From the NCBI GenBank assembly GCA_021498125.1, contig JAIZWL010000001.1:1388676-1452675 (forward strand): a stretch of DNA of 64,000 nucleotides, in the 5' to 3' direction. The notes under the pieces were generated by a model. The model was not told where the DNA came from, did no database searches, and worked only from the letters and a program-made list of their open reading frames with translations. Positions 12,056-38,298 of this stretch are shown in pieces. Position 1 is the first letter of the stretch, and each line of letters begins with the position of its first letter. Source of the DNA: Candidatus Thorarchaeota archaeon. GTDB taxonomy: Archaea; Asgardarchaeota; Thorarchaeia; Thorarchaeales; Thorarchaeaceae. The translations under genes and the position numbers were made by a program.

Positions 12056-13201
12056 TTATCGCCGCGCCTCCTCTCGTAGTCTTGCAGCAGAGAACTCGTC
12101 AACACGATCCTTTACTTCTTCCCGGGCTGCCTGATGTTTCTCAAGGAACTCCATCATCATCGGTGCGAGCATCTGTTTGCACTCGCCGCAGAGTATCTCG
12201 CCCCCACGGCACTTCCGTTCGATCTCAGCCAACTCTTTATCGTCAGGCATGAAGATGAATTTGTAGTACTGGAAGACCGAACATATGTCCGGGTTCGCTC
12301 CCAGCTCTCTCTGTTCCTTAGCAGAGGCACGACCCCCTGTGAATGCGTTCATGACCTTCTTCTTAGCCATCTTTGGTGTATCAGTAGTGAACACAGCCGA
12401 CATGGGATCTGACGCTGACATCTTTCCGCCCTCTGCGAGACCGGGTACAAACTTGTTCTGAATCGAGGCTGGTTTGTAGTATCCGAGTTTCTCTGCAACA
12501 TCTCTAGTGACACGCCAATAGGGATCTTGATCGATTGCACAGGGGATGAGGCATGGAGTCTTGACGCCATATATCTCCGAGTGGAGGAAGGCAGGTACTG
12601 CTTGGAGAGCTGTGTACCAGATGGCCCCAATGTTCATGCTGTTCTCAAAACCATAGACCGCCTTTGCAGTAGAGAAGGTCACCTTCTTTGCCACGCGGAT
12701 GCCGATCTCATACATGAGGTCGATATGTTTGATGTCATCGATGATGTATGTGTCCTCTGGTTCAAATCCCAGCGCAAGCAGATCTATGATGTTGTCACGT
12801 GTGTACTTGTGGACATCCTCAATTGACATATTCTGATTGAACAGGAATTTCTCATCATTTGTCATCTGGAAATAGAGTCGGGTGTCAAACTTCTCCTGAA
12901 GCCATTTTGTGAACCGCCAAGGAATCAGATGGCCAATGTGTACATGACCACTGGGGCCTCTCCCCGTGTACAGGACGAACTTCTCACCTTTCTCATACTT
13001 GTCAAGAATCCAATCGAGATCTCTGTGTGCATAGACGAGATCGCGGTCGAGTAGCAGGTTTCTCTCACCTGCGATCTTGAATATCCGCTCTTTCAAGCTC
13101 TCACTGATTCGCTGAGTACCGAACTGCTCGATCAGTCGGTCGTAGTCTATCTTCCCCTTGACTTCCCAAGGGGTGACTACCATCTCTTCATCATTTGTCA
13201 T
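12056..13201 (-). CDS. trpS: Tryptophanyl-tRNA synthetase (archaeal/eukaryotic type)
   Basis: HIGH-class motif GRGPSGHVHIGHLIP, KMSKS-class motif KMSAS, and the archaeal/eukaryotic TrpRS signature PCAIDQDPYWRVTRDVAEKLGYYKPA. 381 aa. Confidence 0.9.
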   Translation of the reverse strand: MTNDEEMVVTPWEVKGKIDYDRLIEQFGTQRISESLKERIFKIAGERNLLLDRDLVYAHRDLDWILDKYEKGEKFVLYTGRGPSGHVHIGHLIPWRFTKWLQEKFDTRLYFQMTNDEKFLFNQNMSIEDVHKYTRDNIIDLLALGFEPEDTYIIDDIKHIDLMYEIGIRVAKKVTFSTAKAVYGFENSMNIGAIWYTALQAVPAFLHSEIYGVKTPCLIPCAIDQDPYWRVTRDVAEKLGYYKPASIQNKFVPGLAEGGKMSASDPMSAVFTTDTPKMAKKKVMNAFTGGRASAKEQRELGANPDICSVFQYYKFIFMPDDKELAEIERKCRGGEILCGECKQMLAPMMMEFLEKHQAAREEVKDRVDEFSAARLREEARR

Positions 13202-13361
13202 TTTCTATTTTCTCCTTGGCGATTCACTCACTGGTGAGCGAATCACTTTCGACCCTTGATTGCACTAAATTAAGGATGTTGGTTGTCCAATCGAAATTGT
13301 ATCATGTAGTTAGCCTAAAAAGGGCCAAGTGTGTTGTATTGTGAAGACACTGACTCATTAG

Positions 13362-13628
13362 GTGCATAGCATGAGAATCGACGATTATGAGTTCGAAGAG
13401 GAAAAGACCCTGAGGAATCTGGCAGAACTCCTTACGAGGATTGCTGAACAGGTCGCGCAAGGCTCAGAGTTGGAGCTCCCAATGCCAAGTCTCAGGGATG
13501 GTATCATCACTCTGCCTCTCGGCGAACCTGTGGAGACCGGAATTGAAGTTGCCTTCCGGAAAGAGTACATCCATCTCCGGATTGATCTGTCATGGACACG
13601 ACCAACTACAGAGGTGAAGAAGGAATGA
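13362..13628 (+). CDS. Small acidic protein, possibly amphi-Trp-domain-like
   Basis: 88 aa. It has an N-terminal acidic helix and a C-terminal ...LRIDLSW with Trp near the end. Resemblance to the amphi-Trp family is from memory only. Confidence 0.25.
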   Translation: MHSMRIDDYEFEEEKTLRNLAELLTRIAEQVAQGSELELPMPSLRDGIITLPLGEPVETGIEVAFRKEYIHLRIDLSWTRPTTEVKKE

Positions 13629-14245
13629 GTGAGCCTGATCTCACAAAAGATGAGATCCTCAAATATCTAGCAGAGATTGTCCAGATGCACCTGCAGATTA
13701 GTCGGGTGCTGAGCGAGAAACTCTGTAAGGACTGTGGTGGTAAAGTTATTGACTGGCATGAGAAACGAAAGACGATCATCTCTCATCTCAGGGATCTGAT
13801 GTCCCCTTACGAGTTCTGTCAGAGGTTGCCACAGAATGAAGATGGTGTAGTGGCCCTCTCGATCATCTCGCATCTTCTCAAGATCCAGTATACTTTCGCA
13901 CAAGTGAAGATCCTAATTGATATGGTCCGTGGTGAATCATTCCAGGAGGTCTATATGGACTCCCTGTCATCCATTGCCTCAAAAGTTCATGGGCAGTTCG
14001 AGGCGCTTGCTCGACTTATCGAATTTAGAATTGAAAAGTCAGAGGCTGCCGATAACGAGAGTGCTACTATTATCCGGTTGGAACGCGAGATCGATGAGGA
14101 CAACATCATCATCTGCAGGCAGGTCTCTGTTGCAACGGGTGGGGATTCGCCTTTCATCTGTTACATGATGCGTAAAATTGTGAGCGAGCTTGAGCATATT
14201 TCTGACTATCTGAAAGAGATCGCTGAGATATTGACCGACTTTTGA
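13625..14245 (+). CDS. PhoU-like/DUF47-type cytoplasmic regulator (putative) upstream of a cation antiporter
   Basis: An all-helical about-200-aa protein ending ELEHISDYLKEIAEIL, which resembles PhoU/DUF47 repeats. The ORF opens at 13592; the MSEPDL start is preferred. Confidence 0.35.
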   Translation: MSEPDLTKDEILKYLAEIVQMHLQISRVLSEKLCKDCGGKVIDWHEKRKTIISHLRDLMSPYEFCQRLPQNEDGVVALSIISHLLKIQYTFAQVKILIDMVRGESFQEVYMDSLSSIASKVHGQFEALARLIEFRIEKSEAADNESATIIRLEREIDEDNIIICRQVSVATGGDSPFICYMMRKIVSELEHISDYLKEIAEILTDF

Positions 14246-14246
14246 G

Positions 14247-15860
14247 GTGGCATGTGTGGCACTTGATCTCTATCTGATTGCTCCTATTCTCATAGGCGGT
14301 GCACTCATTGCTAAGCTCTCAGAGAGATACAGGTTTCCCTATCCCATCCCCTTAATCATTGCAGGAGTCCTTATCGGTCAAGTCGTTCCTCTCAACGACC
14401 TGTCTACAGAGATCATCGGTCTTGACCTCATTGCGCAGCTCACTCTTGCTACAGTTCTGTTCTACGCAGGACTGACGATGAACATCCGTGAACTTCGCTT
14501 CTCACTTACTTCGGTCATGCTTCTTGCAACTCTAGGCGTCCTCGTTACTTCCATTGTTGCAGGATTCACTATTGCGATGTTCACCTCTCTTGGTGTTGTT
14601 GCTTTTCTGATCGGTGCCGTTCTCTCTCCGACAGATCCTGCCGCGTTGTTCTCCGTTCTTGAGAGCGGTGGAGTTCGTGTCAAACGTAAAGTGTTCTCGA
14701 TTCTCGAAGGTGAGGCTGTCTTTAATGATGCAACGGCCGTTGTACTTGTTATTACCGTCTTTACTCCTATCATCATCCCCGCACTGTCTGTGCCATGGTT
14801 TGTTGTTGTTCAAGAGTTCTTCCTAAGTATGATCGTTGGAATTCTCATCGGTTTTGGTATAGCATATGTGATCGGCAGTATTATTGTTCGTACTGGCGAA
14901 GACACATCACTCTCAATACTCACTGCTGCTACTCCAATTCTTGCGTACGGTATTGGTGAACTATTTGCTCCACTGGGAATTCATCCGGGTGCTCTTGCGG
15001 CGGTCTTTGCTGGAATATTCATGGCCAATGCTCGACGAATGATGAAGATGGATCCTCTCCCGCAAAAATCCATGCGAGGTGCGATGAAGAATGTCTCATT
15101 TGCCTTTGAGATTGTCATCTTCATCCTACTGGGCGCCACTGTGGACATTCAGCATCTCTTTTTGAATCCCGATCTTGTCATGACCGGTCTCATAACAGCC
15201 GCACTTGTCATCTTGCTCGCTCGTCCAATTGCGGTGTTTCTTGTGACCGCCTACGACAAGGGGATGGGCTGGCGAGATCGTTTTCTTGTGAGTTGGGCTG
15301 GAGTCAAGGGTGTGGCGACTGCGGCTCTTGCGGCGATCAGTATTGCATCGATAACGCGCTATGCGGTTCCTGGTTTTGCAGAGATTGCACGGACCATCAA
15401 CGGTATCGTCTTTATCGTCTTAATGGTGAGCCTGACTGTTCAGGGGATCACTACCCCGTTCCTTGCCTCGGCACTCGGTCTCACAGAAAAACAGGATGTC
15501 ACTCTCGAAATAACCGCGCGACGTGATGCTACACGGCAGGCACTATTACACCTTGTTGATCTCTATACTGAAGGCAAGATCGACAATGCTCTCTATACGC
15601 GGCTGAAGGCTGAGTTGGAGGAAGAGATCTTTACGTTAGAGGACGACTTACGTAAGATCATCTCTGAGACCCGTGCTCGACTAAGAGAGCTTGAAGTCCG
15701 TGAGTCGCTCCTTACAGCAAAGTTGGATTATTATCGGAAGCAGTACGAGGCTGGCAAGATTGATGACTCCTCATATGAGACCTATCGCCGTGAGCTAGAG
15801 GCTGAGATCGAGGAGATACAGATGCGGATGCGTTCTCTCTCCCGCGGTATGACCACATAA
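14247..15860 (+). CDS. Na+/H+ (cation:proton) antiporter, CPA1/NhaP family, with C-terminal coiled-coil tail
   Basis: About 12 TM helices. The conserved EGEAVFNDATAVVL (ND motif) is present. The C-terminal 120 aa contain an internally duplicated motif (EGKIDNALYTRLKAELEEEI / AGKIDDSSYETYRRELEAEIEEI). Confidence 0.75.
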   Translation: MACVALDLYLIAPILIGGALIAKLSERYRFPYPIPLIIAGVLIGQVVPLNDLSTEIIGLDLIAQLTLATVLFYAGLTMNIRELRFSLTSVMLLATLGVLVTSIVAGFTIAMFTSLGVVAFLIGAVLSPTDPAALFSVLESGGVRVKRKVFSILEGEAVFNDATAVVLVITVFTPIIIPALSVPWFVVVQEFFLSMIVGILIGFGIAYVIGSIIVRTGEDTSLSILTAATPILAYGIGELFAPLGIHPGALAAVFAGIFMANARRMMKMDPLPQKSMRGAMKNVSFAFEIVIFILLGATVDIQHLFLNPDLVMTGLITAALVILLARPIAVFLVTAYDKGMGWRDRFLVSWAGVKGVATAALAAISIASITRYAVPGFAEIARTINGIVFIVLMVSLTVQGITTPFLASALGLTEKQDVTLEITARRDATRQALLHLVDLYTEGKIDNALYTRLKAELEEEIFTLEDDLRKIISETRARLRELEVRESLLTAKLDYYRKQYEAGKIDDSSYETYRRELEAEIEEIQMRMRSLSRGMTT

Positions 15861-26436: not shown

Positions 26437-27192
26437 ATGCGTGTAACGCTCTTAGGAACAGGCACATCTTATCCTGACCCTGACCGTGTACAGTCGGGTG
26501 TGCTCGTTGAGGCAGCAGGTCTTCCTCTTCTCTTCGATATCGGATCTGGGATTCTTCAAAGGCTGACCCAATTAGATCTACCACTGACATCCATCGAACA
26601 CATCTTTCTCTCTCATTTTCATATTGACCACTGTTCGGATTTTTTGACCTTCTATCAGTCTATTTGGTTATCAGGGTTCGATAAGACACTTCATCTCTAT
26701 GGCCCTCCTATGATCCGTGATTGGTTACGCGGTCTCTTTGATGTCGCCTTTCCTTACTTGCGTCATAAACTCAAAATGGAAGTCACGATCCTTGAAGAGA
26801 ATCATGTGGTACATATAGGCCCCGTGACGGTGATCACATGTCCAACATTGCATGGGTCAATGGAGTCACGAGCGTTTCGCATCGAACATGATGGGTCCTC
26901 TGTAGTCTATACCTCCGATACGGCTCCTTGCCCCGAGGTGATAGATCTTGCGTGCGGTACCGACTTGTTGATTCATGAGTGTAACTGGCTTGACGGCGAT
27001 CATCCATCCGGTGTACACACAAGCCCCTTACAATTAGCTGATGTGGTCGAGCGGATCGCACCCAAGGTGGTTATATTAACACATGTGCCGCCTGAGGTTG
27101 TTGAATCGGCTGAGCAGGTCCTCTCTATCGTGCAACGTCGGACTGACGCCAAGACACTCATGGGTACTGACCTTACCACCTTTGATGTTTGA
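26437..27192 (+). CDS. Metallo-beta-lactamase-fold hydrolase (short RNase Z/PhnP-like)
   Basis: N-terminal LLGTGTSYPDPDRVQSGVLVE and the HxHxDH motif (LSHFHIDHCSDF). Downstream His/Asp ligands are present (TSDTA; HECNW; LTHV). Confidence 0.75.
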   Translation: MRVTLLGTGTSYPDPDRVQSGVLVEAAGLPLLFDIGSGILQRLTQLDLPLTSIEHIFLSHFHIDHCSDFLTFYQSIWLSGFDKTLHLYGPPMIRDWLRGLFDVAFPYLRHKLKMEVTILEENHVVHIGPVTVITCPTLHGSMESRAFRIEHDGSSVVYTSDTAPCPEVIDLACGTDLLIHECNWLDGDHPSGVHTSPLQLADVVERIAPKVVILTHVPPEVVESAEQVLSIVQRRTDAKTLMGTDLTTFDV

Positions 27193-27482: not shown

Positions 27483-30400
27483 ATGATTCGAAAGCACGCA
27501 ATACTCATGGTAAGTGTTACTTTATGCGTACTACTTTTGTTCGGTGGTTCTTCTTCCACGAAAAATGGAACGATTGCCCCTTCAAATCTGGTACACTCAG
27601 ATAGGTCCGTCTTGGCGTATACGTCACATGGCCCAATTAATATTGTAAATGATAATTTCACAGCTGCTGGGTTCAGCGGTTCTGGGACCGAAGCTGATCC
27701 GTATGTACTTGATGATGTTAGTATAACAATGGCAACATATGCGAAAGCGATTCATATCGAGAATTCAACTTCGTATTTCATCATTCGGAACTCGCTGATT
27801 GATGGGTACGGTAAAAGCTCTCCGAATGCATATGGGCTGTATATGAAAAATGTTACACATGGTACAATAGAAAATTGTACGTTCATTGACCATTACTATG
27901 ATCTCTATGCATCGAATGTGAACTTTACAGAAGTTCTTGATTCTGAGTTCACTGAATCTTGGTATGGTGTCAATACCGCCACAGTTGTCAATTTCACTAT
28001 TAGCGATAGTGAGTTTAAGGATGTGGACCTTGATTTTATACGGATAGTCCCTACCTCCTCATTGAGTTATAATATTACAATTAGCGATAACGTAATGTCG
28101 CATGGTTCTCGATTTACTGTTGAAGGAGCGGTATACCTAGAATCATGTTATCGTGTGACCATCTTTAACAACACTATGTACAGTCTAAGTTCGGATGTGA
28201 TTAAATTCGATCAATGTTATTATGTGACTATTCAAAATAATATTATCCACGAGATAAACGGCAATGCCATTAGGTTTTCTACTTCATCTCTATCGATAGT
28301 CATTGATAATAACACAATTCACTGTATTAATGAAAACGGTATGTATATTTATAATAGTCAAGTAACTATTACGAACAATAAGATCTATCTGGTCGCACAG
28401 AATGGGATTTGGTTACGCCGAACATCAAGCTCCACTGTTGTAGACAACACGATATTCAAGGCGTTTGATACGGGAATCATACTTAATGATTCATCTAGTA
28501 GTAATACTATCGTTAACAACGAAATCGGCTGGAATGGTCGAAACGCTTTTGATAACGGCTCTTCCAATTCGTGGGATGACGGGGTATTGATTGGAAATGC
28601 ATGGAGTAACTACACGGGATCTGGAACAATGCCGATTCCCGGTGCAGCTGGTTCTATTGATAACCATCCTTCGACTTTTACAGACACGACTCCTCCAACG
28701 CTCAGCTCACCTGCGGATGTGACCTACGATGAAGGGGACACAGGTTATAACATCACGTGGACTTTTTCAGACGCGCATCCCTACAGATTGATCCTCTATG
28801 TTGATGGGGTCGAGAATGAGACCGAGTATTGGTGTTCAGACTCGGGTACGGTGTCGGTAGATGGGCTTCCTGCTGGAGATCATAACTACACAGCTGTGGC
28901 TCAAGATGCAGCTGGTAACAATGCAACTGATACTGTGTTTGTGCATGTTCGTGATATCACCAATCCTCAAATAGTGGGAGTTGGTACTATCCATATAGAA
29001 ACGCCACAAATTTACTTTATCAACTGGAATGCTACCGATCTTCATCCTGACACGTATATTATATATAAAAACAATTCGTTTTATGTATCGGGAACTTGGG
29101 ATAATCCGAATAATATTAGCGTTGGTCATAACACTTGGAATGTTGAATCTCTCAACTTCACCGTGTGGGTCAATGATACCTATGGGAACACTGCGACTTT
29201 CACCACTTGGCTCATCTGTGAAGATACCACAGATCCACTGGCGTATCATTCAGGTGGTGACAATTACGAGTATGGTACTACAGGACATAATATCAATTGG
29301 ACTATCAATGAATACTTCAATAATACCTACACTATCTACCTCAACGGAACTCCTATTCAAAGTGGCCATTATAACAAAACATCAGAACATGACTCACGTT
29401 CTTATGTTGACATCAATGTAGATGGTCTTGGGCTAGGGGCATACAACTATACGCTCTACGTGACTGATCAAAACGGCCATAATGATACTGATGTTGTGAT
29501 CTTTACAGTCAGCGACACGACCCCTCCAAGTATCTCACAACCAGCAGATATCACTTATGAGGTGGGGTCAACCGATAACATACTTACGTGGCAATGTTCG
29601 GATCTTTTACCTGATCATTATGTACTGTATCATAATGGCACCGTGATAAAGTCACTTGCGTGGGACGGTTCGGACATAAGTCACATTGTTGACGGGTTCA
29701 TGGAGAACCGACAACAGAACTTCACCCTTGTGATCTATGACACCTCTGGTAATAGTGCCAAGGATACTGTTATGGTCACAGTGACTGATAATGAAGGGCC
29801 AACGCTTGACCATCCCGCAGATGTCACTTATGAGGCTGGCACAACGGGTCATGTCATCACTTGGCATCCGTCAGATGGCAATCCCAGCCGATACCAGATA
29901 ATGCGTGGGAGTGATGTTATCAGAGAAGGTTCGTGGAACAGCAGTTCAGAAGTCATCTCAGTAAATGTGGATGGGCTGGATCTTGGTTCATACGATTTCC
30001 AACTGACCGTCTGGGATCGATCCGATCATACTACTGTGGATTATGTTCAGGTTACTGTTCAGGACACGACTCCCCCAATTGTTACTGGGCCGGATGACTT
30101 TTCATACACATTTGGTACCACTGGTCATTTCATCAATTGGACTATCGAAGAACTCTATCCGCATGCATGCTATGTGTATCGAAATGGAACTGTTGTAGGG
30201 AGTTACCTATGGGAGAATACGTCGGTACACTACTCTATTGATGGCTTAGCTATCGGTGTGTATAACTTTACAATTGCTTTCAGTGATGAGTCTGATAATG
30301 TTGGATATGACACAGTTTTCGTCACAGTCGTAGCTGAAAGTACAACGACGACAACGACCACAACGACGACAACGACCACAACGACGACAACGACCACAAC

Positions 30401-30551
30401 GACGACAACGACCACAACGACGACTACACCAACAACGATCCAGGTACCTCCACCGGACATGACCATGATTCTTGTGGTAGTGGCTGGTGTAGCTGGTGTT
30501 ATTGTTATCCTAGTTGTTGTATTCGTTATCCGACCTAAGAAGTCCGTATAG
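27483..30551 (+). CDS. Giant cell-surface protein: signal peptide, right-handed parallel beta-helix region, six tandem Ig-like repeats, 33-Thr stalk, C-terminal TM anchor
   Basis: 1022 aa. There are PbH1-like repeats (ITISDNVMSHG..., TIFNNTMY..., TIQNNIIHEI..., IVIDNNTIHCI..., TITNNKIY...). A repeated about-100-aa unit has the pattern T-PP-x-P-AD-x-Y-E-G-T-G-H-I-W...Y-x-NGT. More than 60 N-x-S/T sequons are present. The C-terminus has a TM helix and the tail RPKKSV. Confidence 0.75.
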   Translation: MIRKHAILMVSVTLCVLLLFGGSSSTKNGTIAPSNLVHSDRSVLAYTSHGPINIVNDNFTAAGFSGSGTEADPYVLDDVSITMATYAKAIHIENSTSYFIIRNSLIDGYGKSSPNAYGLYMKNVTHGTIENCTFIDHYYDLYASNVNFTEVLDSEFTESWYGVNTATVVNFTISDSEFKDVDLDFIRIVPTSSLSYNITISDNVMSHGSRFTVEGAVYLESCYRVTIFNNTMYSLSSDVIKFDQCYYVTIQNNIIHEINGNAIRFSTSSLSIVIDNNTIHCINENGMYIYNSQVTITNNKIYLVAQNGIWLRRTSSSTVVDNTIFKAFDTGIILNDSSSSNTIVNNEIGWNGRNAFDNGSSNSWDDGVLIGNAWSNYTGSGTMPIPGAAGSIDNHPSTFTDTTPPTLSSPADVTYDEGDTGYNITWTFSDAHPYRLILYVDGVENETEYWCSDSGTVSVDGLPAGDHNYTAVAQDAAGNNATDTVFVHVRDITNPQIVGVGTIHIETPQIYFINWNATDLHPDTYIIYKNNSFYVSGTWDNPNNISVGHNTWNVESLNFTVWVNDTYGNTATFTTWLICEDTTDPLAYHSGGDNYEYGTTGHNINWTINEYFNNTYTIYLNGTPIQSGHYNKTSEHDSRSYVDINVDGLGLGAYNYTLYVTDQNGHNDTDVVIFTVSDTTPPSISQPADITYEVGSTDNILTWQCSDLLPDHYVLYHNGTVIKSLAWDGSDISHIVDGFMENRQQNFTLVIYDTSGNSAKDTVMVTVTDNEGPTLDHPADVTYEAGTTGHVITWHPSDGNPSRYQIMRGSDVIREGSWNSSSEVISVNVDGLDLGSYDFQLTVWDRSDHTTVDYVQVTVQDTTPPIVTGPDDFSYTFGTTGHFINWTIEELYPHACYVYRNGTVVGSYLWENTSVHYSIDGLAIGVYNFTIAFSDESDNVGYDTVFVTVVAESTTTTTTTTTTTTTTTTTTTTTTTTTTTTTPTTIQVPPPDMTMILVVVAGVAGVIVILVVVFVIRPKKSV
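30342..30440 (+). repeat. Exact 18-nt tandem repeat (acaacgacgacaacgacc x4 plus partial units) encoding a 33-residue poly-Thr stalk
   Basis: Four perfect 18-nt units span 30342-30413 and then degenerate. Confidence 0.85.
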
Positions 30552-31555: not shown

Positions 31556-32446
31556 ATGGCTGATGCTATAGAGTGGACAAATGCTGGCCCAGAGGAGATT
31601 GTCTGGCGCTATCCTGACAATCGGATCCGATGGGGGTCACAGCTTATCGTCATGGAGAACCAGGTTGCGATATTTTACAGAGATGGAAAGGCACTCGATA
31701 CCTTTCTTGCTGGCCGTCATAAACTGACTACCAGTAGCATGCCCGGCCTTGTTGGCTGGCTACAAAAGAAGATTAAAGGCGATGTCTTTGAGGCCACCTG
31801 TATCTTTGTATCGCGAGGCCAGTTCCAAGGCAAGTTTGGAGGTAGAGGTCAGACAAGTGATCTTGCGCCACTGATGTTTCATGGTAACTTTTGGTTCCGT
31901 GTTAAGGAACCCAAGATCTTCGTGACAGAGGTCGTGGGTAATCAGAGAGCATTCACGACAAAGAAGATCAATGATTTCCTTCGTTCCTTCATGAACGAGC
32001 GAATTATCGACGAGTTCGCGCACTATGACCTACAAGCAGTCTTCACACAACTTGATGAGACCTCATTGAAGGTCAAGACCAAGGTGCGGATGAATTTTGA
32101 GCGCATTGGTCTAGAGCTTGTTGATCTGAAGTTCGAAGGTATTGACACCACCGAGAAATATCGTGAGCGCCTCTTCTGGCTGCGAACTGGTGGAGTTTCA
32201 GGGCAGCAGGTCGCTGGAATGGAAACAATGAAAGATGCCGCAGAATCACTTGGTCACAGTCCCGGTGCCGGATTCGGTGCAGGAATGGGCTTCATGGGTG
32301 CTATGGGCGGCATGATGGGTGGTGGACAACAAGGCGGTGGCGGCGGTGGTGCTGCACCCGCAGGTGCCAAGTTCTGTCCGAACTGTGGTACGAAGTTGTC
32401 ACCAGGTGTCAAGTTCTGTCCGAACTGTGGTACGAAAATCGGGTAG
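31556..32446 (+). CDS. SPFH/Band-7-like (Band_7_1/YdjI-like) protein with Gly/Met-rich segment and C-terminal duplicated zinc-ribbon
   Basis: The N-terminus IEWTNAGPEEIVWRYPDNRIRWGSQLIVMENQVAIFYRDGK resembles the Band_7_1 family start. The tail (GAGFGAGMGFMGAMGGMMGGGQQGGGGGG) is followed by KFCPNCGTK...KFCPNCGTK. Confidence 0.55.
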   Translation: MADAIEWTNAGPEEIVWRYPDNRIRWGSQLIVMENQVAIFYRDGKALDTFLAGRHKLTTSSMPGLVGWLQKKIKGDVFEATCIFVSRGQFQGKFGGRGQTSDLAPLMFHGNFWFRVKEPKIFVTEVVGNQRAFTTKKINDFLRSFMNERIIDEFAHYDLQAVFTQLDETSLKVKTKVRMNFERIGLELVDLKFEGIDTTEKYRERLFWLRTGGVSGQQVAGMETMKDAAESLGHSPGAGFGAGMGFMGAMGGMMGGGQQGGGGGGAAPAGAKFCPNCGTKLSPGVKFCPNCGTKIG

Positions 32447-32549: not shown

Positions 32550-35153
32550 GTGGCACGAATGGAGTATGATTTGGAATTCCTAAAGGCGCACGGTCTGATG
32601 GTTCAAGAACATAAGGGATCTCTTGCTATCAGGGGCACCGAAGTAGAATTCCACTATGACCGTGCAAATCGACTGCTCTACTTTAACATGCCTCCGACGC
32701 TCACGCCTCAGGAAATAGTTGCAGTTGTGACCGACTCGATGCTTGTCGATTACATCTGGTTCTGGGGTGATCATCTTGAGGTGTTCCGCCTCATTGACAG
32801 GACCTGTTACATTTGCAAACACCGTGGCGAAGCTCTATTTGATGAGCACGAGCCGGGTGAATTCGACCATACTGGTCTAGAACGGCTCTTCAGTGATATG
32901 ATCGGACTTCCTGACTTCACTGATCGGCTTCCATCTATACTTGACAGTCTTAGACCGCTTGAACGAGAGCGATCCGGTGTCATGCATGGACTTCTCTTCA
33001 GATTTTTTACTATTATATTTCTTATACAGATGGGTATGGTGACGGTCAAAGGTGCAGAAACGATACGCGACTTTGGAGAACGTCTACTATTATCTTCTGT
33101 AGGTCCTGACTTGGCAATTCCTCGGATTATCACGGGTGATGGCATGGGCCTTGTGGACTCAACTGTAGCCGGGGTCTCTCTCTCGCAGATTCTTGAGACT
33201 CTCTTCGGAGATCATGCGGATATCCCCCACACACTGCCGCCCTTTGCTGGATCTTATCTCGCCAATTTTATCAAAAATTATGCAATTGGGATGGATGATA
33301 CCGATCAGTCCCGTTCTCTAACCCTGCAGTTTCTTGAATTCTTACATGAGTATCTCATCTCAACATCGGGGATCAATCGTCGCATTGGCTCATATTATAC
33401 GCCTATGGGCATAGCCTACTATATTGCAAGTCAGGCAATTGCGTACTGGCTTGCTGCGACGACGGGGATTGACATCTACGAGCCGGATGATTTGTTGGAA
33501 CTTGACGAGATCAGGCGAAAGGCTCTCCTCGCCAGAGTGGAGCGAATTCGTATTCTCGACCCTGCGGTTGGAGGTGGGGCTTTTCTTATGGCTGCTGCTC
33601 AAGTGTTGCTGAGATTGAGAAAGCTGCTTGGGGATCGGCGACCTGATGGTCACATTCGATCCGAGATAGTGAGGCACAACCTATACGGAGTCGATATACT
33701 CCCCTCTGCTGTTGAATGTGCCACATTACGGCTAAAGCTCTGGTCACTGGATACCGCCTCTTTTCTCACGAATGACCTCCCGACTCATTTGCATATCCGA
33801 GTAGGTAACAGTCTAGTTGGACGTACGCACTATTCACATGACGCATTGGATGTCCCATCCATCCCTAAGCGATTTGATTGGATCAAAGAATTCCCAGAAA
33901 TATATGACCGAGAGGATCCGGGATTTGATATTATCATTGGTAATCCGCCCTACGGAAATATCACGTCGTATGATGAACGTGCCTACATTATACTGACCTA
34001 TCCATGGTCTGTGAGTGGTGAACGTACAGGAACCTGGAATAGTGCCTCGCTCTTCCTTGTTCGTTCAAGGATGTTGTTGAATAGCAAAGGGCAGCTTGGT
34101 CTTCTTGTACCGAATAGTATTCTCCGGGTGCGACAGTTCGCCAAGACTCGTTCTTTCATTACGAGCCAGTTCTTCCCTCAGGAATTTGTTGATGAGGGGA
34201 GCCCCTTTGACGGAGTGACCCTTGAGACCGTGACGCTCTTTTTGAGCGTGAGCGATTCCCAGTCGTCGTATATTCGTGTTCTCTCTCGGCGTCCCGATCT
34301 ACGACCGGCTCATGCCATACCACGCAGAGCGTCAAAGGACGACACGATTGTGGTCCTGTATCACGATGACATTCTCGATCTTGTTCTGGAACGGGGAACC
34401 AAAGGAGTCTTTCACGCATCACGAGGGAGAGATATTCCCCGCGAGCACTATGCTTTCTCCCCATCCGTTCGCTTTTCAATTCCTTATGCAGCAGTTGGAC
34501 GCTGTGTGAGTCGATATACGTTCGTTGATTCGTTTATGAGATATTCCGATGATTGGTTTGAACAAGATCGTTTGATGCGCGCATCTTTTCACGAGTCGTT
34601 TCTTGTCGCAACCAAGAATTTACCCTATCCTCGGTGCACACTGAAGCCTATCGGAGTCCTTCATGGTGGGGGGCTAGTTCGTATCACGATTGATGATCCA
34701 CACTTAGACCCACGAGCGGCTGCTGTGATCTTGAATTCCCGTTTTGTCAGGTATCTCTGTCTGCGGTACTTTACGAACTACTCGCAGTTGACCACCTGTC
34801 TTAACACTGGCATCCTTGAGGAGATTCCCGTGCCTCCTCTCTCTGTCCCTGATGTGTACCCTGTTCTCTTTGAGATTCTGCATGATGTTCATACTAGTAA
34901 CAAGTATGATTCTGCTGCCATCGCTTCTGTTGAGATGTTGACAGATGCTCTTGTATACGAACTCTATCTTCTTGATTCGGATGAACTTCATACTACAGCA
35001 AGAGACTCTTTGCTAGATGCTGCGGGTCGTGATACTCAGACCCTGATTCCTAACTTGATCGGCGGCTCTCTCCGTCAGAGTATGTTGAGTGTGTTGGATG
35101 ATCCGATAGTCCGTAGAGTAGAAACCTCTCCCCGGATGTCAAGGTCTCGTTGA
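32550..35153 (+). CDS. Large gamma-class N6-adenine DNA methyltransferase (Eco57I/type IIG-like architecture) with uncharacterised about-290-aa N-terminal region
   Basis: Motif X GSYYTPMGIAYYI, motif I (SAM-binding) RILDPAVGGGAFLMAAAQ, and motif IV DIIIGNPPYGN, in gamma order. There is a C-terminal about-250-aa putative target-recognition region. The N-terminal region contains CYICKHRG...EFDH. Confidence 0.75.
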   Translation: MARMEYDLEFLKAHGLMVQEHKGSLAIRGTEVEFHYDRANRLLYFNMPPTLTPQEIVAVVTDSMLVDYIWFWGDHLEVFRLIDRTCYICKHRGEALFDEHEPGEFDHTGLERLFSDMIGLPDFTDRLPSILDSLRPLERERSGVMHGLLFRFFTIIFLIQMGMVTVKGAETIRDFGERLLLSSVGPDLAIPRIITGDGMGLVDSTVAGVSLSQILETLFGDHADIPHTLPPFAGSYLANFIKNYAIGMDDTDQSRSLTLQFLEFLHEYLISTSGINRRIGSYYTPMGIAYYIASQAIAYWLAATTGIDIYEPDDLLELDEIRRKALLARVERIRILDPAVGGGAFLMAAAQVLLRLRKLLGDRRPDGHIRSEIVRHNLYGVDILPSAVECATLRLKLWSLDTASFLTNDLPTHLHIRVGNSLVGRTHYSHDALDVPSIPKRFDWIKEFPEIYDREDPGFDIIIGNPPYGNITSYDERAYIILTYPWSVSGERTGTWNSASLFLVRSRMLLNSKGQLGLLVPNSILRVRQFAKTRSFITSQFFPQEFVDEGSPFDGVTLETVTLFLSVSDSQSSYIRVLSRRPDLRPAHAIPRRASKDDTIVVLYHDDILDLVLERGTKGVFHASRGRDIPREHYAFSPSVRFSIPYAAVGRCVSRYTFVDSFMRYSDDWFEQDRLMRASFHESFLVATKNLPYPRCTLKPIGVLHGGGLVRITIDDPHLDPRAAAVILNSRFVRYLCLRYFTNYSQLTTCLNTGILEEIPVPPLSVPDVYPVLFEILHDVHTSNKYDSAAIASVEMLTDALVYELYLLDSDELHTTARDSLLDAAGRDTQTLIPNLIGGSLRQSMLSVLDDPIVRRVETSPRMSRSR

Positions 35154-35200
35154 AGTTGATGTTTATATAGTGCAGGCCTCCATGTGCAAACCGAATCGCG

Positions 35201-35803
35201 ATGAACGAAGAATCACCAGAGCCACATGATGACTCTAAAGAGATGGCTGACGAACTCATAGATGCGGCGACCTCCGAAAGAGAATCTGTTGAAGACGATG
35301 GCCTTACCAAGCGTGAGCGGGAAATAGCGCGCCGGGTTGAAGAGGAGCGCAGGCAAAAAGGAAAGGCTGCACTCAAGCGTTTACAGGAGCGAAAGATGGG
35401 TGTTCTCAATTATAGGTGGCCCGCCATCATACTGGTAGGTGCTGGTATTCTCTCGATCTGGTCTGAATTCTTGGTCGTGATGATCCATCCTGCCGGAATC
35501 GGTTTTGACACATTCTTACAGGCCTATCTGGAGCATGGCTCGGTCTTCTTTGTCTTTCCAATCATTTCTGGCGTGTTTCTGTTTATGTGCGCATTCTGGG
35601 CGTATGAGGATCCCCGTGGTTCATTTGTGTCAATCATCCCTGCAATGATGATGGCAATGTCTGGGATGACGGTGTATTATCTGGTGTCTTTTGCATTGGC
35701 TGCGGATCCAAATGTCGGCGTGTCAGCAACAGGCGCACCCTTCACAATGATCCTTGCGGCTGTTCTATGTCTATTGGCAATTGTGATGCGAGAGCGGGAA
35801 TGA
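35201..35803 (+). CDS. Membrane protein with acidic/charged N-terminal tail (hypothetical)
   Basis: 200 aa. A charged coiled N-terminus is followed by about 4 TM helices. Confidence 0.4.
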   Translation: MNEESPEPHDDSKEMADELIDAATSERESVEDDGLTKREREIARRVEEERRQKGKAALKRLQERKMGVLNYRWPAIILVGAGILSIWSEFLVVMIHPAGIGFDTFLQAYLEHGSVFFVFPIISGVFLFMCAFWAYEDPRGSFVSIIPAMMMAMSGMTVYYLVSFALAADPNVGVSATGAPFTMILAAVLCLLAIVMRERE

Positions 35804-37320: not shown

Positions 37321-38298
37321 TCACTCTGTCGTATTGGTAGAACGTTCTTCATCCTCGTTTTTTGACTCCTCTGGTCTTTTCTCAGGTGGAGCCGCTATTT
37401 GCTTCTTCTTGGTTGTTCCTCCAGCAAGTCCAGTAAGGCCAATGATCTCTCCACGTGTCATGTCCATTGGAATTGCAAAGACGATCGTGTTGCTTTGATC
37501 AAAGCTGATGTCTTCGAGGCTCGAGAGTGTTCTTAGATAGAGTGCCTTTGTGCTCATCTTCTTGACAGCCGCCTCCAAGTTCTCAGCAGCCCTCAGTTCT
37601 CCCTCGCTCTTGATAATGACTGCACGCCGCTCACGTTCAGCCTCCGCTTGTCTGGCAATCACTCTCTTCATGTCCTCAGGAATCTCGATATTTTGCAGAT
37701 TGACACTGATAATATCGATGCCCCACTCGGCGGTCTCCTTATCGACTATCTCCTCAATGGCATTTGCAATCTCGTCTCTTTTTGCAAGTAGATCATCAAG
37801 CTCGACATTACCGATAACATCCCGCATGGTCGTCTGAGCATAGGAGATCACACTTGTCTTGATGTCCTGAATATTCATCAATGCATCTGCTGTTTTGACG
37901 ACCTTCATAAAGACGACCGCATCTGCGACAAGACTGATGTTGTCTTTCGTCATGACCTCCTGACGGGACACATCAATAGTCTGGATTCGTCTATCAATTC
38001 TCAAAAATTTTTCAACGAATGGCCATTTGAAGAATATTCCCGCACCGACCAATCTCTTGTATCTGCCGAACCGTAAGATGATAGCCTCTTCCCATTGCTT
38101 GTTGATCGCAATGGTCAGTGGGATCATGAGTAGGAATACCAATGCTAGAATCCATACCACTGGCTCTGGCAAAAACGTGATCGGTAATTTCAATATTGGT
38201 ATTGCTATAGTGAGAATAAATAATATTAGAAACGTCACAAAAGGTGCTGGCGAACCTGAATATTCGTATGTGTTATCGTGTTGTTCCTCTGTCCCCAT
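37321..38298 (-). CDS. Stomatin/prohibitin-family SPFH (band 7) membrane protein
   Basis: An N-terminal TM anchor precedes an SPFH core (VSRQEVMTKDNISLVADAVVFMKVVKTADALMNIQD...) and a coiled-coil/Ala-Glu-rich segment (RQAEAERERRAVIIKSEGELRAAE). Confidence 0.8.
   Translation of the reverse strand: MGTEEQHDNTYEYSGSPAPFVTFLILFILTIAIPILKLPITFLPEPVVWILALVFLLMIPLTIAINKQWEEAIILRFGRYKRLVGAGIFFKWPFVEKFLRIDRRIQTIDVSRQEVMTKDNISLVADAVVFMKVVKTADALMNIQDIKTSVISYAQTTMRDVIGNVELDDLLAKRDEIANAIEEIVDKETAEWGIDIISVNLQNIEIPEDMKRVIARQAEAERERRAVIIKSEGELRAAENLEAAVKKMSTKALYLRTLSSLEDISFDQSNTIVFAIPMDMTRGEIIGLTGLAGGTTKKKQIAAPPEKRPEESKNEDEERSTNTTE

Follow-up and report, generated by a model that had tools for sequence, protein, structure and literature searches.

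A vertically inherited, predicted gamma-class N6-adenine DNA methyltransferase of Thorarchaeota, probably solitary, with likeness to type IIG restriction-modification enzymes

Closest described methylases

CamA is a gamma-class N6-adenine DNA methyltransferase, with a large beta-rich target-recognition domain (TRD) located C-terminally of the catalytic domain, that has the target motif CAAAAA and a role in sporulation. This enzyme of C. difficile is an orphan that is conserved across the whole taxon and is rare outside it (PMC8187626). The same domain order and the same pattern of distribution are seen for the Thorarchaeota methylase described here. The two proteins do not belong to the same sequence family, however (~14% sequence identity), and CamA is a bacterial protein that is conserved at the level of a species and lacks the ~270-aa N-terminal module of the protein analyzed here, the homologs of which are conserved in dozens of Thorarchaeota species.

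Persistent orphan methylases conserved in archaeal taxa are also documented, e.g., the haloarchaeal CTAG and GATC orphans and groups HG3 and HG4 of a REBASE survey (PMC6471742; PMC10609329). The presence of a methylase throughout a lineage in the absence of a restriction partner points to a functional constraint other than defence. The archaeal examples come from Halobacteria, Methanomicrobiales, Nitrososphaerota and others, and belong to methylase families other than that of the present protein; unlike these, some of the Thorarchaeota members retain what is probably a relic type IIG N-terminus. In the table of the REBASE survey, Asgard archaea are represented by a single genome, a Lokiarchaeota (PMC10609329), and literature searches did not turn up any account of a methylase conserved in Thorarchaeota. 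Nothing in the present results overturns current understanding.

Two groups of defence proteins have to be considered as well. The type IIG/IIL restriction-modification (RM) enzymes (MmeI, BpuSI and DrdV; REase_MTase_IIG in PADLOC) are patchy in distribution or mobile and have variable TRDs, whereas the Thorarchaeota gene occupies a housekeeping locus and encodes a conserved TRD. Furthermore, the Thorarchaeota protein contains no nuclease catalytic motif, conserved charged residues are replaced in its homologous N-terminal domain, and the entire module is absent in most of the homologs retrieved. The BREX PglX/BrxX and DISARM DrmMI proteins share the Eco57I-type core, and BrxX/PglX structures are matched with E about 1e-19, but the protein analyzed here is about 350 aa shorter than PglX, its scores with the NCBIfam BREX PglX models (27.7-51.3 bits) stay below the cut-offs (400-900), and the PADLOC BREX/DISARM matches span the methyltransferase core only. 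None of BrxA/B/C/L, PglZ and DrmA/B/C is encoded among the neighbours. Given the scores below the cut-offs and the lack of system genes nearby, membership in BREX or DISARM was rejected.

Catalytic and target-recognition domains

The gene is located in a 64 kb window (the whole stretch of DNA that was analyzed) of a Thorarchaeota MAG. The ORF list and the translation show a plus-strand reading frame that is open without interruption from 32550 to 35153, in agreement with the first-pass annotation, but the 867-aa length given there has to be reduced. The true start is almost certainly the ATG at 32559 (MEYDLEF...), yielding 864 aa, rather than the GTG at 32550, because a 100% identical database entry (P0001, "N-6 DNA methylase [Candidatus Thorarchaeota archaeon]") is 864 aa long and the N-termini of the orthologs align at this position, an equivalent M-x-Y-D opening every ortholog in the N-terminal alignment. 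The GTG at 32550 is merely the upstream bound of the open frame. A tRNA scan and an Rfam scan of the window were both empty. The features discussed below are the following (amino acid positions of the motifs are counted from the ATG at 32559):

32559..35153, plus strand: methyltransferase gene, complete, 864 aa (ORF list and translation)
32559..32828, plus strand: beta-rich sub-domain (aa 1-90), consisting of a helix, three strands, a helix and three strands; fold assignment ambiguous
32805..32870, plus strand: segment CYICKHRG-x10-EFDH, flagged in the first-pass annotation as an HNH or zinc-binding candidate
32868..33374, plus strand: helical sub-domain (aa ~104-272), ahead of the catalytic domain
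33375..34238, plus strand: predicted gamma-class N6-adenine methyltransferase catalytic domain (aa ~273-560; motifs X, I and IV, Pfam)
33387-33410, plus strand: motif X, GSYYTPMG (aa 277-284; sequence)
33555-33587, plus strand: motif I, LDPAVGGGAFL (aa 333-343; sequence)
33933-33956, plus strand: motif IV, IIGNPPYG (aa 459-466; sequence)
34239..35153, plus strand: beta-rich TRD (aa ~561-770) and helical tail (aa 771-864) (conservation, Foldseek)
35201..35803, plus strand: 200-aa membrane protein (u200) with a charged N-terminus and about four hydrophobic helices

The three motifs follow each other in the gamma-class order, X (TGxYYTP), then I (DPxxGxGxF), then IV (NPPY), with the TRD located C-terminally of the catalytic domain, just as had been read from the sequence at first pass, and the assignment to the Eco57I family made there is upheld by the profile searches. 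The protein matches Pfam Eco57I (PF07669) with 76.1 bits (cut-off 25.3; E=4.7e-21) and exceeds the Pfam cut-offs also for MmeI_Mtase (36.4 bits, cut-off 27) and N6_Mtase (26.6 bits, cut-off 20.4). An alignment of 69 sequences shows no variation at G277, Y280, T281, P282, D334, G338, F342 and N462-Y465. The Pfam scores and the invariance of motifs X, I and IV argue for the catalytic competence of the predicted methyltransferase, the substrate of which is most likely DNA; the product would be m6A.

The full-length AlphaFold (AF2) model has a pLDDT of 87.5 (mostly >90 in the catalytic domain) and a pTM of 0.88. A Foldseek search started with this model identifies CamA (PDB 7lni and others) as the best match, with E=3e-22, a TM of 0.70 normalised to CamA and about 615 aligned columns that include the TRD; the next matches are BrxX/PglX, M.BseCI (TM normalised to the target, 0.64-0.67), M.TaqI (0.67-0.69, likewise normalised) and DrdV. 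The modelled two-domain fold, catalytic domain plus TRD, is superposable on solved DNA-bound members of the class. A PDB sequence search with the full protein retrieved M.BseCI only (E=0.0085).

The NPPY motif is common to rRNA, tRNA and protein-glutamine N-methyltransferases, and weak matches to RMKL-like UPF0020 and to PrmC were detected, along with a TrmN6 label that one source attaches to one homolog. An enzyme derived from a DNA methylase could, accordingly, have been retargeted to m6A in rRNA or tRNA, or to a protein (Gln/Lys N-methylation); such retargeting would explain why the gene is conserved throughout the class in a housekeeping context, and would fit both the strongly conserved recognition domain and the proximity of genes for a putative AAA_18/PRK03839 kinase and the thermosome. 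Nevertheless, this possibility appears quite unlikely. The best-matching families, Eco57I, MmeI_Mtase and N6_Mtase, are all DNA methylases, the matches to RNA and protein methylases fall below the cut-offs, the methyltransferase and the TRD align structurally with DNA-bound CamA, M.BseCI and M.TaqI, homologs contain the TaqI_C DNA specificity domain, and type IIG-like DNA enzymes form the closest outgroups.

The TRD-sized C-terminal region anticipated in the first-pass annotation is indeed present (aa ~561-770, followed by the helical tail). No family in Pfam or NCBIfam covers aa 565-864; Pfam TaqI_C is matched by some of the homologs. Conservation among 59 family members peaks in the TRD, where the mean pairwise identity is 52% (minimum 38%); the catalytic domain reaches 48% and the N-terminus 23-30%. 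The TRD contains the conserved stretches TKNLPYPRC, HGGG, LNS and TNYSQLTTCLNTG. The dN/dS ratio for the TRD is 0.10 in the comparison with the nearest ortholog (dS about 1), the only one usable for this purpose because synonymous sites are saturated in the comparison with a 49%-identical ortholog. RM families that diversify their specificity show the opposite pattern. At the level of sequence, the conservation of the TRD would imply a constant target motif across the lineage.

Chromosomal locus and inheritance

Orthologs were identified at 49 loci in 49 species-representative genomes when a single genome was scanned for each GTDB species, a count that covers the genomes carrying the gene. Most of these are labelled Thorarchaeota, and the others "uncultured archaeon", "archaeon", Promethearchaeota and, in one case, "Hermodarchaeota"; the loci with broader labels share the Thorarchaeota synteny. 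At the family boundary, E-values in the protein search fall from 1e-114 to 1e-57. When the neighbours of the gene in the window were compared to the 49 loci by tblastn, the same gene order was recovered at every locus with enough flank: MBL hydrolase, u152, SPFH/Zn-ribbon protein, the methyltransferase, u200, AAA_18 kinase (on the minus strand), GNAT, ARMT1 and thermosome. Gene calls at four loci match this order. The syntenic block extends over ~15 kb.

The neighbours within about 10 kb of the gene, which include the genes for the thermosome and for a putative AAA_18/PRK03839-type kinase, encode housekeeping proteins or membrane proteins with no assignment. No restriction, specificity, BREX or DISARM genes were found in the flanking ~10 kb in either direction or among the largest ORFs scanned elsewhere in the window, so that the initial observation of a methylase gene with no RM, BREX or DISARM partner nearby is confirmed for this range; an adjacent cognate restriction endonuclease is not encoded at the four gene-called orthologous loci either. 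The gene is inherited vertically at one fixed chromosomal position in Thorarchaeota. The fixed locus and the vertical inheritance indicate that the protein is most likely a lineage-wide orphan methylase rather than a component of active defence. Together with the conserved TRD, they favour the first of the three options that had been proposed from the sequence alone, namely an orphan methylase, a self-contained RM enzyme and a part of an undescribed system.

Thus, the best explanation, with an estimated probability of roughly 70%, is that the product of this gene is a gamma-class N6-adenine DNA methyltransferase of the persistent solitary (orphan) kind, and that the gene belongs to the vertically inherited core of Thorarchaeota genomes and goes back to a type IIG-like ancestor. 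If the enzyme works in the manner of CamA, M.TaqI and M.BseCI, its conserved TRD would bind a single invariable DNA motif, which is probably short and may be asymmetric, the adenine to be modified would be flipped into the NPPY pocket, and the methyl group would be passed from S-adenosylmethionine to N6, which would result in a lineage-wide m6A mark on the chromosome. Such a mark may serve housekeeping or epigenetic functions (replication, repair, gene regulation) rather than restriction. The model predicts one conserved m6A motif across Thorarchaeota, a prediction that can be checked in existing long-read metagenomes, and the predicted motif could aid the binning of Thorarchaeota contigs by methylation signature. 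The likeness to type IIG enzymes appears, from the sequence comparisons, to reflect ancestry and not the current function. Defence pipelines keyed to Eco57I or type IIG could register a type IIG RM system in each Thorarchaeota genome that carries the gene, and such counting would inflate the immune content of Asgard archaea; a better flag would be a persistent solitary methylase.

N-terminal module and downstream membrane protein

Amino acids 1-270 are not covered by any family in Pfam or NCBIfam, nor by any nuclease family in Pfam, NCBIfam or PADLOC, in line with the first-pass description of an unassigned N-terminal module with no obvious PD-(D/E)xK motif. A search of PDB sequences with a profile of the beta-rich sub-domain yielded only spurious matches to antibody light chains (E about 1). 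This sub-domain shares homology with the N-terminal ~100 aa of 970-1,190-aa Eco57I/TaqI_C proteins that PADLOC classifies as type IIG. In the core tree, these proteins form the closest large outgroup; support for the backbone of this NJ tree is weak, and the clade of the protein analyzed here is recovered in 47 of 100 bootstraps. The larger relatives keep the FD, AYxE and GExK signatures, and their position at the N-terminus together with the conserved charged residues suggests that the respective domain could be a nuclease. The protein analyzed here has D34, N43 and R81..C83 instead, i.e., of the D/E/E/K positions, D34 is kept and three of the four are replaced (N43, R81 and C83); the lysine of GExK is never kept among the aligned Thorarchaeota family members. 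Given the loss of three of the four conserved charged residues, the N-terminal domain is probably not a nuclease but a non-nucleolytic relic. The helical sub-domain that follows shows some likeness to the helical domains present at the N-terminus or as spacers in HsdM, MmeI, DrdV, BsaXI, BpuSI and PglX. The module evolves under purifying selection (dN/dS 0.17-0.25), so that it probably performs a structural, DNA-binding or regulatory role.

The segment CYICKHRG...EFDH, for which a degenerate HNH-like or zinc-binding function had been suggested, has a spacing of x10 and not x13 as originally reported; pLDDT around aa 91-120 is low (about 60-72). A 71%-identical ortholog reads RHVYKSKD...VEFTH at this place, so that conservation of C83, C86, H88 and H104 breaks down already at this level of identity, and more distant orthologs contain neither Cys nor His in the respective columns. 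The candidate HNH or zinc element was rejected for this lack of a conserved Cys/His pattern; judging by the alignments, the segment is a chance pattern.

The entire ~270-aa module is missing in about 50 of the 61 homologs found by protein search. The module-free homologs consist of 550-641 aa and begin at motif X; one of these comes from a closed genome and is encoded at the same locus. Full-length, helical-only and module-free forms coexist at one orthologous locus, and appear to record the conversion, in steps, of a restriction enzyme into a housekeeping methylase. Under the orphan methylase interpretation, the protein would descend from a type IIG-like RM enzyme, its beta-rich and helical module would be the remnant of the N-terminal part of that ancestor, and most Thorarchaeota would have dropped this module entirely.

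If the protein were, alternatively, an active single-polypeptide type IIG/IIL RM enzyme, its N-terminal domain would be expected to cleave foreign DNA that is unmethylated, close to the site that the same protein methylates on the chromosome of the host. This is very unlikely given the housekeeping locus in 49 genomes, the conserved TRD, the absence of the module in about 50 of 61 homologs and the lack of conservation of the HNH-like residues, and the same four lines of evidence argue against the suggested novel or undescribed defence system. In a bolder scenario, the domestication of an RM enzyme at the base of Thorarchaeota would have given rise to an essential genome-wide m6A epigenetic writer, and the decayed domain in the nuclease position would have taken on, in some lineages, a new role as a module for regulation or for reading DNA or methyl marks. 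This scenario is rather unlikely; if true, it would provide an Asgard case of selfish RM machinery turned into a core chromatin or epigenetic function. A variant in which the enzyme is vertically fixed and still restricts DNA via a non-canonical active site is less likely.

The u200 gene starts 47 nt downstream of the methylase gene on the same strand and was detected at 43 of the 49 scanned loci, an arrangement that could reflect an undescribed two- or multi-gene system, either for defence or membrane-linked, comprising the methylase and u200. However, the adjacency of the two genes is little informative because the whole block is syntenic, u200 has no match in Pfam or NCBIfam and no recognisable effector domain, no PADLOC system partner is present, and at five loci the methylase is kept while u200 is demonstrably absent. 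Such a system is therefore highly improbable, and u200 is probably not a functional partner of the methylase. A co-occurrence of u200 with the N-terminal module, suggested by one locus, was refuted by the 49-locus survey. The u200 gene is preceded by its own canonical TATA box, TTTATATA, at 35162-35169, which likewise argues against a multi-gene system.

Coding region, catalytic core and structural relatives

The region 32550-35153 (+) is an open frame without interruption, according to both the ORF list and the translation. The first-pass annotation, which started an 867-aa protein at GTG 32550, had the frame right, but ATG 32559 is the better start because the protein that begins there opens with MEYDLEFL…, the 100% identical database entry of the query (P0001) is 864 aa long, and an M-x-Y-D start aligned with this ATG is common to all full-length orthologs. 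The three motifs reported previously are found in the gamma-class order (X, I, IV), and the reported CYICKHRG…EFDH is present, with a spacer of 10 rather than 13 residues; thus, the observation is real and needs only small corrections.

Catalytic motifs, numbered from the ATG
aa 277-284: GSYYTPMG (motif X)
aa 333-343: LDPAVGGGAFL (motif I)
aa 459-466: IIGNPPYG (motif IV)

The Pfam Eco57I model matches the protein with 76.1 bits (cut-off 25.3), MmeI_Mtase and N6_Mtase likewise exceed their thresholds, and aa 1-270 and 565-864 have no Pfam or NCBIfam coverage. Motif I and NPPY show no variation in 69 aligned sequences.

The AlphaFold2 model of the full-length protein is confident (pLDDT 87.5, pTM 0.88). 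Its best PDB match is CamA (E=3e-22, TM 0.70 normalized to CamA), with about 615 aligned columns, so that the match spans the catalytic domain and the target-recognition domain (TRD); BrxX/PglX, M.BseCI, M.TaqI and DrdV follow. CamA is a gamma-class orphan adenine methylase that is present in all sequenced genomes of C. difficile, is rare elsewhere, and is involved in sporulation control, not restriction (PMC8187626). The ~600-aa core of the Thorarchaeota family shares the architecture of CamA.

Mean pairwise identity by region, 59 family members
aa 1-90, N-terminal beta domain: 30%
aa 91-272, helical domain: 23%
aa 273-560, catalytic domain: 48%
aa 561-770, putative TRD: 52% (minimum 38%)
aa 771-864, helical tail: 30%

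Against the closest ortholog (dS ~1), the TRD has a dN/dS of 0.10, the catalytic domain one of 0.16 and the N-terminal module values of 0.17-0.25. In families of restriction-modification (RM) enzymes, the recognition domain is usually the variable part. Here, by contrast, conservation is highest in the TRD, which would imply a single fixed target throughout the lineage.

Gene neighborhood and distribution

P0001 is encoded in a Candidatus Thorarchaeota MAG, on a contig of 1.55 Mb, and the window is ordinary archaeal chromosome.

Genes in the window
26437-27192 (+): MBL-fold hydrolase
31556-32446 (+): SPFH/Band-7 protein
32559-35153 (+): methylase
35201-35803 (+): 200-aa membrane protein, directly after the methylase
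37321-38298 (-): SPFH/Band-7 protein
Also in the window, among the ORFs scanned: UvrA, UvrC, amino-acid permease, class I tRNA synthetase, archaeal SAM synthetase, AAA_18/PRK03839-type putative kinase, GNAT acetyltransferase, ARMT1-like phosphatase, thermosome and Rpb6-like protein

As noted in the first-pass annotation, no restriction, specificity or BREX/DISARM gene is adjacent; next to the methylase there is also no helicase or other PADLOC partner. There are no tRNA genes and no Rfam families at the gathering threshold across positions 1-64000.

A protein search identifies about 61 close homologs (E from 0 to 1e-114, 36-71% identity), and every named one comes from a Thorarchaeota or “Promethearchaeota” MAG; past these, the E-value jumps to 1e-57, with generic type IIG/PglX-like proteins. 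With each GTDB species represented by one genome, a scan yields 49 methylase loci, the majority labeled Thorarchaeota; the remainder (“uncultured archaeon”, “archaeon”, Promethearchaeota and one Hermodarchaeota) show unchanged synteny. When the neighboring proteins of the window are compared with these 49 loci by tblastn, the loci with enough recovered flanking sequence have the order MBL hydrolase, 152-aa ORF, SPFH/Zn-ribbon, methyltransferase, 200-aa membrane protein, AAA_18 kinase (opposite strand), GNAT, ARMT1, thermosome; four loci with gene calls agree. This order persists down to 36-40% methylase identity, including the closed chromosomes CP070658.1 and CP070761.1. This pattern marks a core gene that descends from the group's common ancestor, and not a mobile RM or defense gene.

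Such housekeeping conservation would also fit an RNA or protein methylase, but DNA enzymes account for every sequence family above threshold and for the structural matches to the whole protein, and DNA RM enzymes are its nearest relatives. The adjacent membrane protein gene, which turned up in 43 of the 49 loci scanned, weakly suggests a two-gene system; against this, the entire block is syntenic, the methylase is demonstrably kept without the membrane gene in five loci, and the latter has its own canonical TATA box, TTTATATA, at 35162-35169, ~35 nt upstream of its ATG. No Pfam or NCBIfam model matches the 200-aa protein, whose N-terminus is acidic and charged and which contains about four hydrophobic helices.

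Several neighbors deserve mention. The two SPFH/Band-7 genes flank the methylase region on either side; the upstream protein (62-98% identity among scanned loci) has a Gly-rich linker followed by a duplicated CPNCG zinc-ribbon at its end. The MBL-fold hydrolase, which keeps its position in most scanned loci, scores below the Pfam threshold for Apyc1, an anti-Pycsar nuclease of phages (25.7 bits, cut-off 50), and seems to be a chromosome-encoded housekeeping relative of this anti-defense enzyme. The gene at 27483-30551 (+) encodes a 1,022-aa beta-helix/NosD and PKD protein with a C-terminal hydrophobic segment; it is missing at the syntenic position of L001 (the locus of the closest relative), where a 143-aa ORF stands alone, and the stretch that holds it has a GC content of 0.41-0.43 versus 0.45-0.50 on both sides. 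It looks like a strain-variable surface-protein insertion. L001 carries a TnpB/Cas12f-like (Cas12f1-like_TNB) gene fragment at its edge (15202-15407, ~2.6 kb downstream of the methylase), with no counterpart at that window position. L002 (the locus of the 49%-identical ortholog) has at 13112-14745, a few kb beyond the downstream end of the methylase block, a Dam-like MethyltransfD12 gene overlapped by a 241-aa ORF. The matching place in the window has no counterpart, and the pair may represent a separate insertion of an RM or orphan methylase gene.

The N-terminal module and the origin of the methylase

In the AlphaFold2 model of aa 1-272 (pLDDT 79.6), aa 1-88 form a helix, three strands, a helix and three strands, and aa 104-270 a helical bundle. 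A Foldseek search with the module finds no significant match, and the beta-domain sequence profile has no real match in the PDB, so no nuclease fold is asserted. The HNH-like or zinc-binding element proposed for CYICKHRG…EFDH is rejected for lack of conservation: the 71%-identical ortholog has RHVYKSKD…VEFTH at this place.

The evidence of homology is firmer than that from fold searches. The module profile matches only 45 of 1.84 billion representative proteins; apart from members of the Thorarchaeota family, most are proteins of 970-1,190 aa with the module at the extreme N-terminus. In the large proteins examined, Eco57I, MmeI_Mtase and TaqI_C domains are accompanied by weak MmeI_hel domains. 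PADLOC assigns these proteins to type IIG, with its models aligning only from about residue 120 on, so that the module sits at the nuclease position of known type IIG enzymes. In the methyltransferase/TRD core tree, no large outgroup lies nearer to the Thorarchaeota family than these proteins, so that module and core were probably inherited jointly. Four charged positions conserved in the large proteins (…FD…, …AYxE…, …GExK…) are D34, N43, R81 and C83 in the query, and the GExK lysine is retained in none of the aligned Thorarchaeota family members.

About 50 of the 61 homologs lack the module, being 550-641 aa long and beginning a few residues ahead of motif X; the short form of the closed genome CP070658.1 lies 148 nt after the SPFH gene, which leaves no hidden upstream part. 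Intermediate forms (proteins P0010 and P0018; ortholog loci L019, L021, L029 and L035) keep the helical part alone. In the tree, the members with a module do not cluster together but sit among the short forms in at least two distinct groups (group B, bootstrap 100/100; both groups monophyletic together, 0/100), on a weak backbone with the query clade in 47/100 replicates. This scatter is most simply explained by ancestral presence of the module and repeated loss.

These observations best support a gamma-class N6-adenine DNA methyltransferase that is persistent and solitary and that was domesticated, at or near the base of Thorarchaeota, from a type IIG-like ancestor. With DNA as the predicted substrate and m6A as the predicted product, it would write a single conserved motif on the chromosome. 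The module, lost from most lineages, survives in that of the query as a folded, selected domain that is probably non-nucleolytic and would serve in structure, DNA binding or regulation. The missing nuclease motifs, the dispensable N-terminal domain, the conserved TRD and vertical inheritance disfavor an active type IIG enzyme with a nuclease of non-canonical kind. The suggestion of a candidate type IIG or novel defense enzyme is not supported. The alternative offered with it, an orphan methylase, is right, to which the analysis adds that this is a lineage-wide core gene bearing a relic of restriction-enzyme ancestry.

Conserved orphan methylases within archaeal taxa are documented (PMC6471742; PMC10609329), and the Thorarchaeota methylase joins this class of persistent enzymes. 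A REBASE-based survey table includes only one Asgard genome, a Lokiarchaeota (PMC10609329), and literature searches found no account of this family. The case calls for caution in defense-system annotation of Asgard genomes and yields a directly testable prediction, one shared m6A motif in Thorarchaeota.

Large type IIG-like relatives

The proteins P0126-P0153 form a small uncharacterized family of type IIG-like enzymes (~1,000-1,190 aa) with a common N-terminal domain, for which Pfam has no model, with the pattern YDLEFLKEKGFF … FDxxNxLAYFE … DYYWFW … RTFGENKxFIYN … KSKxDKL … LFD. This domain may be an undescribed type of nuclease. In the members examined, the Eco57I model, 171 positions long, is matched over ~260-330 residues, a span suggestive of a large insertion within the Eco57I domain.
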